Assembly: GCF_003334315.1 (NCBI RefSeq)
Contig: NZ_QOWR01000082.1
DNA: 13,470 bases
DNA from: Escherichia coli
GTDB lineage: Bacteria; Pseudomonadota; Gammaproteobacteria; Enterobacterales; Enterobacteriaceae
Direction: 5' to 3' (one strand)
The translations under genes were made by a program, and so were the position numbers. This document shows, piece by piece, positions 1,738-4,207 of the stretch. Under the pieces are notes generated by a model. It saw nothing but the letters and a program-made list of their open reading frames with translations, ran no database searches and was not told where the DNA came from. Position 1 is the first letter of the stretch, and every line of letters starts with the position of its first letter.

Positions 1738-2467
1738 TTAGCGCGTTCGCTGCGAAAGCACCTGCTGCTTATCCAGCTTTTGCACCAGCGGCTGCACCAC
1801 TTTATCCCCATGCTGACCAAAGTATTGATACAGCGTATCGGACGCACTTTTGGTCAGCACCATAATCTCGATGCGCCGATTACCCGCACTTTGCGGATTC
1901 TTCGCGTCCAGCAGCATCTGGTCCGCCATTGCGCTTACCTGCATCACTTTATCTTCCGGCATTCCGGCCTCTTCCAGCACCCGACGAGCCGAAAGCGCGC
2001 GGTCACCCGAAAGGTTCCAGTTGTTGTAGATATTGTTTTTGTAGGCCATCGCATCGGTATGCCCGGTAATAATAATTTTATTATCGAGCGAGTCGAACAC
2101 TGGCGCGAGCTCCACCAGCAGCGTTTTAAAGAACGGCATAATCTTCGCGCTGCCGCGTTCAAACATATTGCGGTTCTGGTCATCTTTAATCAGCACGCGC
2201 AATCCCTGGGGAACAATCTCCATCTCCAGATTCGCTTCCATATGCGCATCACGGGCAATGGTGTTGATACTGGTTGCCAGCTCGCCAAGCTCGGTGGCGG
2301 ATTTCTTCTTCAGCAGCGCTGTTTTCTCGTTGACGTCTCGCGCTTTTTTCTCCGTCTCTTCCGGCACCGCCACGGTGGCAGGTTTTGGCGGATGAGACGG
2401 GCTGATTTTATTTAACGGCGACAATCCGCCGCCACTGAAAATCGACTGCCCGTGCAGCGCGGCGATA
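1738..2467 (-). pseudogene. lafU: lafU (mbhA), 5'-truncated MotB-like gene of the lateral flagellar (Flag-2) system; upstream boundary approximate
   Basis: The minus ORF 1738..2628 contains a MotB/OmpA-like C-terminal domain (LRVLIKDDQNRNMFERGS...IIITGHTDAMAYKNNIYNNWNLSGDRALSARRVL) but no N-terminal transmembrane helix. Its first ~50 codons are antisense lfhA sequence, so the real remnant starts somewhere around 2450-2490. Confidence 0.75.
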
Positions 2468-4207
2468 ATGCTTTCACGCTCGGATTTACTGACGCTGTTG
2501 ACAATCAACTTTATTGTCGTCACCAAAGGGGCCGAGCGTATTTCCGAGGTTTCAGCCCGCTTTACCCTGGATGCGATGCCCGGTAAGCAGATGGCGATTG
2601 ACGCCGATCTTAATGCCGGGTTGATCAATCAGGCGCAGGCACAAACCCGACGTAAAGATGTTGCCAGCGAGGCCGATTTCTACGGCGCGATGGACGGGGC
2701 ATCGAAATTTGTGCGCGGGGATGCTATCGCCGGGATGATGATTCTGGCGATCAACCTGATCGGCGGCGTCTGTATCGGGATCTTCAAATACAACCTGAGC
2801 GCCGACGCCGCCTTCCAGCAGTATGTGCTGATGACCATCGGCGACGGGCTGGTGGCGCAAATCCCTTCCCTGCTACTCTCCACCGCGGCGGCGATTATCG
2901 TCACCCGCGTCAGCGACAACGGCGATATCGCCCATGACGTGCGTAACCAGTTGCTGGCAAGCCCGTCGGTGCTCTACACCGCTACCGGAATTATGTTCGT
3001 ACTGGCGGTAGTGCCGGGAATGCCACATCTGCCGTTTTTGCTGTTCAGCGCCCTGCTTGGCTTTACCGGCTGGCGGATGAGCAAACGCCCGCAGGCGGCG
3101 GAAGCGGAAGAGAAAAGTCTCGAAACGCTGACCCGCACCATCACCGAAACCAGCGAGCAACAGGTCAGTTGGGAAACCATTCCGCTGATCGAGCCCATCA
3201 GCTTAAGCCTCGGCTACAAGCTGGTGGCGCTGGTGGACAAAGCCCAGGGCAACCCGCTCACCCAGCGTATTCGCGGCGTGCGACAGGTGATATCCGACGG
3301 CAACGGCGTGCTGCTGCCGGAGATCCGCATTCGGGAAAACTTCCGCCTTAAGCCCAGCCAGTACGCTATTTTCATCAACGGCATTAAGGCTGATGAAGCG
3401 GATATTCCGGCGGATAAACTGATGGCGCTGCCCTCCAGCGAAACCTACGGCGAGATAGACGGCGTGCTGGGGAACGACCCGGCGTACGGGATGCCGGTGA
3501 CCTGGATCCAGCCTGCGCAGAAAGCGAAGGCGCTGAATATGGGGTATCAGGTGATCGACAGCGCCAGCGTGATTGCTACCCATGTAAATAAGATTGTGCG
3601 CAGCTATATTCCTGATTTATTTAACTATGACGATATTACGCAGTTGCATAACCGTTTGTCGTCGATGGCACCGCGCCTGGCGGAGGATTTAAGCGCGGTG
3701 CTCAATTACAGCCAGTTGCTGAAAGTGTACCGGGCGCTGCTGACCGAAGGCGTTTCCCTGCGCGATATCGTCACCATCGCCACCGTGCTGGTCGCCAGTA
3801 GCGCGGTGACCAAAGATCATATTCTGCTGGCAGCCGATGTGCGCCTGGCGCTGCGGCGCAGCATTACCCATCCGTTCGTTCGCAAGCAGGAGCTGACGGT
3901 GTATACCCTGAATAATGAGCTGGAAAATCTGCTGACTAACCTAGTGAATCAGGCGCAACAGGGCGGTAAAGTGATGCTCGACAGCGTGCCAGTGGACCCG
4001 AATATGCTCAACCAGTTCCAGAGCACGATGCCACAGGTGAAAGAGCAGATGAAAGCGGCGGGGAAAGACCCGGTGCTGCTGGTGCCACCGCAGCTGCGCC
4101 CTTTGCTGGCGCGTTATGCAAGGTTGTTTGCGCCGGGGCTGCATGTGCTGTCGTATAACGAAGTGCCGGATGAGCTGGAGTTGAAGATTATGGGGGCGTT
4201 GATGTAA
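2468..4207 (+). pseudogene. lfhA: lfhA (fhiA), 5'-truncated FlhA-family export-gate gene of the Flag-2 system, 579 codons
   Basis: The ORF begins inside the FlhA fold: INFIVVTKGAERISEVSARFTLDAMPGKQMAIDADLNAGL corresponds to FlhA residues ~130-170, so roughly the first 120 residues and any promoter are missing. The 579-aa length matches the K-12 fhiA fragment as I recall it. Confidence 0.8.

Follow-up and report, generated by a model that had tools for sequence, protein, structure and literature searches.

Ren, Beatson, Parkhill and Pallen are said to have described, in 2005, the fhiA/mbhA (lfhA/lafU) gene pair of Escherichia coli as the scar left by deletion of the Flag-2 lateral-flagellar cluster. 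In the K-12 annotation the two genes stand as pseudogenes lfhA and lafU (b0229/b0230). The claims of the 2005 paper are relayed here through three later accounts (PMC3032704, PMC6993521, PMC11420993), of which one locates both ends of the deletion inside the lfhA and lafU reading frames, notes direct repeats there, counts the deletion in 76 of 100 E. coli and also reports scars in Citrobacter and Shigella (PMC6993521). Already in 2007 fhiA and mbhA were entered as an ‘overlapping gene pair’ (PMC1940028), and in Flag-2-negative Escherichia albertii the site is occupied by truncated flhA and lafU (PMC11420993), about 75% of that species being without the Flag-2 locus according to the literature. 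A related history is that of the ETT2 type III secretion cluster, likewise an ancestral secretion system lost from most strains by deletion between short direct repeats (PMC5422975); however, ETT2 has a different locus and different genes and shows many intermediate attrition forms, whereas Flag-2 is essentially all-or-none. The feature analysed here is, with near certainty, the E. coli Flag-2 scar and its lfhA/lafU pseudogene pair. The scar is an ordinary and already described E. coli feature, and its value as a discovery is small, given its presence in the literature since 2005 and in the K-12 annotation.

The window, by which we mean the whole 13,470-nucleotide stretch of E. coli chromosome that was analysed (contig NZ_QOWR01000082.1), carries dinB, the lafU remnant, the lfhA remnant, REP elements and rayT in that order (Table 1). 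Its bases 1600-4300 are matched in all 5,426 complete E. coli genomes searched and are 100% identical to strain CP53, in which the RefSeq order at the identical locus is yafN, dinB, lafU, flhA (a pseudogene with its N-terminus missing), rayT, yafL, dinJ-yafQ and dpaA, placing the scar between dinB and rayT/yafL. Both open reading frames of the original prediction, minus 1738-2628 and plus 2468-4207, are present at those coordinates. An Rfam search of the window returned REP/naRNA4 elements only and nothing at the junction. The REP clusters lie at 4218-4430, 5024-5113 and 8294-8437 (naRNA4 matches at 4285-4362, 5027-5104 and 8356-8433) and flank rayT (4431-4928, minus strand), with similar copies in intergenic regions inside the intact Flag-2 cluster. 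The segment 3' of lfhA (4208-4430) is polymorphic, a hicA-hicB toxin-antitoxin pair replacing the REP array and rayT in some scar and some intact strains, and in other strains a small hypothetical ORF is found 3' of lfhA.

Table 1. Position and content of the elements that make up and adjoin the lafU/lfhA junction (window coordinates).
Feature	Position	Strand	Content
lafU (mbhA) remnant	1738..2506	-	LafU residues 53-307 and stop codon 1738-1740; MotB-like linker and OmpA-type peptidoglycan-binding domain
Deletion junction	2504..2506	no strand	3-bp ATC microhomology; three-row alignment against both sides of intact strain 165
lfhA (fhiA) remnant	2504..4207	+	LfhA residues 131-697 and stop codon
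12-codon in-frame extension of lfhA remnant ORF, MLSRSDLLTLLT	2468..2503	+	read from lafU antisense
Upstream extension of lafU remnant ORF	2507..2628	-	read from lfhA antisense
lafU-dinB intergenic region, 70 bp	1668..1737	-	LexA-box-like site and promoter-like hexamers for dinB
REP-element array between lfhA end and rayT	4218..4430	no strand	context, outside the scar; Rfam naRNA4/REP match 4285-4362

The reference for the breakpoints was strain 165 (NZ_CP020509.1), whose dinB-yafL interval, the site of the scar, is occupied by a complete Flag-2 cluster. There dinB is followed by 70 bp, a 307-residue lafU, motA/lafT and the remaining cluster, and at the far end fliP, fliR and flhB precede a 697-residue flhA/lfhA directed toward yafL, lafU and lfhA being the outward-pointing terminal genes. 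A BLAST comparison of the window with this locus yields two collinear, slightly overlapping blocks (E=0 for the homology of the remnants to the intact genes). In the base-by-base alignment the window follows the lafU side as far as 2506 and the lfhA side from 2504 onward, and a single deletion, of 34,826 bp as measured in strain 165, therefore accounts for the window. In the window the 3' fragments of the two genes meet 5' end to 5' end and the cluster that separates them in strain 165 is missing. This agrees with the expectation that a whole cluster had been excised from between the fragments, but the junction had been placed near 2450-2490 and lies about 15-55 bp to the right of that range. 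The parental sequences at the breakpoint (marked here by a slash) are GACAATC/CAC on the lafU side and ATGATCATC/AAC, also written ATGATC ATC/AAC, on the lfhA side, and both are unchanged in three intact strains. Alignment to an intact Flag-2 genome had been proposed as the way to place the breakpoints and to find any microhomology between them; the homology it yields is 3 bp perfect (ATC) within an imperfect 10-mer with 7/10 matches, and REP copies are the only sequence that the deleted 34.8 kb shares with the window.

Two findings would have spoken against such a scar, a LafU membrane segment or FlhA N-terminus within the window, or an origin of the fragments other than as the ends of one cluster. 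Neither N-terminal part was found, nor were N-terminal lafU or lfhA fragments seen elsewhere in the window, and in strain 165 the two genes are the outermost of one cluster. The alignments thus support the view that the two fragments represent the outermost genes of one ancestral Flag-2 cluster. Further Flag-2 clusters occupy the same site in strain 1438, where the cluster is complete, and in SCPM-O-B-7615, where it is largely complete with IS insertions. The ‘intact’ cluster of SCPM-O-B-7615 is itself decaying, with IS5-like and IS1 insertions truncating the lafS sigma factor gene and a CadC-family regulator (14465-17576 of the extracted locus) and with the flagellin region missing, and in strain 165 flgH is frameshifted.

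From the alignment we infer a microhomology-mediated mechanism. In the ancestor the interval between dinB and yafL/rayT would have held some 35 kb of Flag-2 lateral-flagellar genes, bounded at its two ends by lafU and lfhA facing outward. One illegitimate recombination at the ATC microhomology would then have joined the interior of lafU codon 52 to lfhA codon 131, so that each gene lost its 5' end and the whole of the intervening DNA disappeared. Neither leftover would be functional, the one being without the LafU membrane anchor and its Asp, the other without the first LfhA membrane helices and with its export-apparatus partners gone.

The lafU remnant is recovered by tblastn with LafU 53-307 at window 2505-1741 with 98.4% identity, and relative to the intact protein 52 N-terminal residues are lost. 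As had been proposed, a MotB-like C-terminal domain is encoded on the minus strand: the ORF contains an OmpA-family domain (PF00691, E=1.2e-13) and covers positions 42-297 of the 297 in NF005273, the NCBIfam LafU equivalog, scoring 477.8 against a cutoff of 383. Intact LafU has a single hydrophobic helix, VAFADFTLAMMALFMTLWI at residues 35-53, with an Asp inside it, whereas no hydrophobic segment is found in the remnant. Of the features of the MotB/LafU family, the C-terminal OmpA-like peptidoglycan-binding domain is thus present and the N-terminal membrane helix with its Asp is absent, and judged by domain content what is left is a piece of a family protein rather than a functional member. 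In MotB-type stators the helix and its proton-binding Asp are needed for membrane insertion and proton conduction. Because both are lost, the leftover peptidoglycan-binding domain would be stranded in the cytoplasm, out of reach of the periplasm.

For the plus strand the original prediction was of an FlhA-like protein lacking roughly its first 120 residues. The truncation is real, with the ORF spanning model positions 99-656 of 657 in Pfam FHIPEP (E=3.6e-189), but the loss is larger, exactly residues 1-130 with their N-terminal membrane helices. The part that is kept has 99.7% identity to strain 165 lfhA from codon 131. Its TIGR01398 score is 594.6 against a cutoff of 772.1 and a score of 773.2 for intact LfhA, and the missing part includes the hydrophobic segments at residues 21-39 and 118-136. 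A full FHIPEP domain with N-terminal membrane helices is therefore lacking, and FlhB and FliPQR are not found alongside; these export-gate partners are encoded upstream of lfhA in intact strains, and the window has none of them. PGAP marks the lfhA remnant as a pseudogene without its N-terminus.

The overlap of the two ORFs had been thought to create chimeric N-termini. Both junction-spanning ORFs do exist, but the N-termini are conceptual only, as no Shine-Dalgarno sequence was found upstream of the three candidate starts (ATG 2468 on the plus strand; GTG 2523 and TTG 2628 on the minus strand). A promoter scan gave nothing convincing for these ORFs, only weak 9-of-12 consensus matches, in one of which the -10 hexamer overlaps ATG 2468. 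The longest minus-strand ORF starts at TTG 2628, and PGAP takes GTG 2523 as the start of a 261-residue CDS (1738-2523, minus strand) that it labels, in all the scar genomes examined, ‘putative lateral flagellar export/assembly protein LafU’. PGAP calls the fragment an intact CDS because its NF005273 score clears the cutoff, and as a consequence pan-genome and protein-family studies count a dead lafU fragment as a gene.

Scored by a 120-nt junction probe that had to be covered as a single ungapped piece, the scar junction occurs in 4,086 of the 5,426 complete E. coli genomes (75%), K-12, B and O157:H7 among them, a share that agrees with the 76/100 of PMC6993521. Among these 4,086 no differing junction sequences were seen between lineages. 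With a 600-nt probe over the lfhA breakpoint of the intact gene, full coverage being required, lfhA is intact across the breakpoint in 1,293/5,426 genomes (24%). The K-12 fhiA/mbhA pair has the locus, gene order and junction of the window, the junction region being 99.2% identical over 120 nt, ungapped, and its remnants have the same lengths (lafU CDS 786 nt, flhA pseudogene 1719 nt); the difference is only allelic, with 3.1% divergence over the lafU part and 4.5% over the lfhA part. Intact strains (E. coli 042, W, ST131 JJ1886 and strain 165) share with the window the chromosomal site and the terminal genes lafU and lfhA, and differ in possessing the remaining 34.8 kb or so of the cluster and the 5' ends of both terminal genes.

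The same junction extends beyond the species. In the E. albertii type strain NBRC 107761 the junction GACGCTGTTGACAATCAACTTTAT is identical to that of the window, about 3700-3740 of its locus corresponding to window 2480-2520, against a nucleotide divergence of around 10% (about 90% overall identity). The E. albertii locus differs in that its lfhA remnant has an extra 22-bp frameshifting deletion, equivalent to window position ~3437, and its lafU 3' end and dinB side are rearranged. Despite the frameshifting deletion, dN/dS between the E. albertii remnant and the window is 0.03-0.08. A genome-collection scan with the LfhA remnant found, among the matches listed, at least three close relatives, E. 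albertii with the scar and two Citrobacter genomes, the latter having full lfhA with lfhB before it.

On its other side the lafU remnant was predicted to end 70 bp from the dinB start, with possible read-through into the dinB promoter region. The distance holds exactly, the lafU stop codon being followed by the gap and then by the dinB start at 1667. Modulation of the dinB promoter by transcription from the lafU remnant is nevertheless unlikely. It would be favoured by the shortness of the gap, by the LexA-box-like CTG-N10-CAG site CTGTATACTTTACCAG at 1684-1699 within it (pattern CTGT-N9-CAG), which is accompanied by promoter-like hexamers, and by the fact that no terminator-like hairpin was found on the minus strand in 1668-1737. 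However, the lafU-dinB spacing is also 70 bp in intact strain 165 and is therefore ancestral, not a product of the deletion, and any read-through would thus be an ancestral property of the laf operon end. Moreover, after the deletion no operon promoter remains upstream, only the weak consensus matches, and the REP array sits between rayT and lfhA antisense. A second LexA-box-like CTG-N10-CAG site lies at 6031-6046 on the minus strand, just upstream of dinJ (6063-6323), so that dinB and dinJ each have an SOS-box-like site upstream, two in the window.

The flanks of the scar bear on how often the deletion arose. We compared nine scar alleles (the window, K-12, B, O157:H7 and five picked as divergent) with nine intact alleles, a small sample chosen for diversity, and in it the scar and intact flanking haplotypes are fully interleaved. 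K-12, with the scar, and SCPM-O-B-7615, with the IS-bearing intact cluster, have 0 differences over dinB, the lafU part and the lfhA part, about 3.5 kb. The window lfhA remnant differs from intact strain 165 at 8 of 1704 positions and from other scars at 73-102, and at a T/C SNP 9 bp away from the junction both bases occur among scar as well as intact alleles. Over dinB-lafU-lfhA (window 612-4207 against K-12, O157, P4 and intact strains) diversity between strains is 2-6%, with dS up to ~0.3 in lfhA, and the diversity within E. coli at this locus is as large as the E. coli-E. albertii distance there.

Interleaving of this kind is what would be seen if the same deletion had arisen many times independently and the breakpoints were a recombination hotspot. 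The identity of K-12 and SCPM-O-B-7615, the closeness of the window lfhA remnant to strain 165 and the SNP shared so near the junction all favour that reading, yet independent recurrence at a 3-bp microhomology is very unlikely. The perfect homology is limited to those 3 bp (imperfect 7/10) and no known site-specific recombination site is seen at the junction. Thousands of equally good microhomology pairs exist in 35 kb, but 4,086 genomes and E. albertii all have the one junction. No recurrence is needed for the interleaving, since homologous recombination in the flanks accounts for it, exchange being unable to cross the heterology at the junction. Indeed, strains 165 and SCPM-O-B-7615 diverge by 1.17% just inside the cluster and by 4.81% just outside it, the switch in relatedness lying near the breakpoint. 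The simplest reading, and our lead, is of a single junction origin, in which one old deletion would have been carried onto many backgrounds and its flanks overwritten by homologous recombination with intact alleles.

The state of the remnants could also be taken to mean that one or both junction-spanning ORFs are real genes maintained by selection, such as an OmpA-domain protein of the cytoplasm or an FlhA truncated at its N-terminus. Neither remnant has a stop or indel in any of the nine sampled E. coli scar alleles, although these differ by up to 6% (dS up to 0.27), and their pairwise dN/dS is 0.02-0.05, which alone would suggest constraint; PGAP, in addition, annotates the lafU ORF as an intact CDS in every genome examined. 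We consider real genes highly improbable. Scar-versus-intact comparisons give the same low dN/dS as scar-versus-scar, haplotypes are shared between the classes and some scar and intact flanks are identical, and the constraint therefore acted on the full-length genes, selection on the remnants being rejected on these grounds. Between closely related alleles dN/dS is 0.32-0.43, though the changes are very few, and the E. albertii lfhA remnant carries its frameshifting deletion. The ORFs are without Shine-Dalgarno sequence, membrane helix or export signal. According to a 2022 eLife paper, lafU has no detectable expression and gave no synthetic phenotype in the screen of that study (PMC8824477), which is the one, indirect, statement on K-12 lfhA/lafU expression that we found in the literature. 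The open frames and the PGAP call are explained by the haplotypes shared with intact alleles and by the remnant lying above the LafU cutoff. This suggests that the frames stayed open, and dN/dS low, through recombination with functional alleles and not because the fragments themselves are under selection. The opposite polarity, with Flag-2 inserted at a site that already existed, is rejected, as an insertion cannot rebuild two complete genes from two truncated ones.

The deletion at a single junction, with recombining flanks, has a tentative extension, in which the scar would be a presence/absence polymorphism that has long persisted and recombined, and not simply an ancient loss. What prompts it is one junction, common to about 75% of E. 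coli and to E. albertii, on flanking haplotypes that are deeply divergent and of which each also occurs beside intact clusters. No statement of such a polymorphism was found in the literature searched, which covered Ren et al. 2005 through later accounts. If this doubtful but possible reading is true, the deletion allele or the cluster would have moved repeatedly between lineages by homologous recombination, and gene conversion from functional alleles would keep the remnants free of stops and indels. It could then indicate balancing selection on having or lacking Flag-2. The interleaved haplotypes provide a small example of how recombination with functional alleles makes a pseudogene appear to be under purifying selection.
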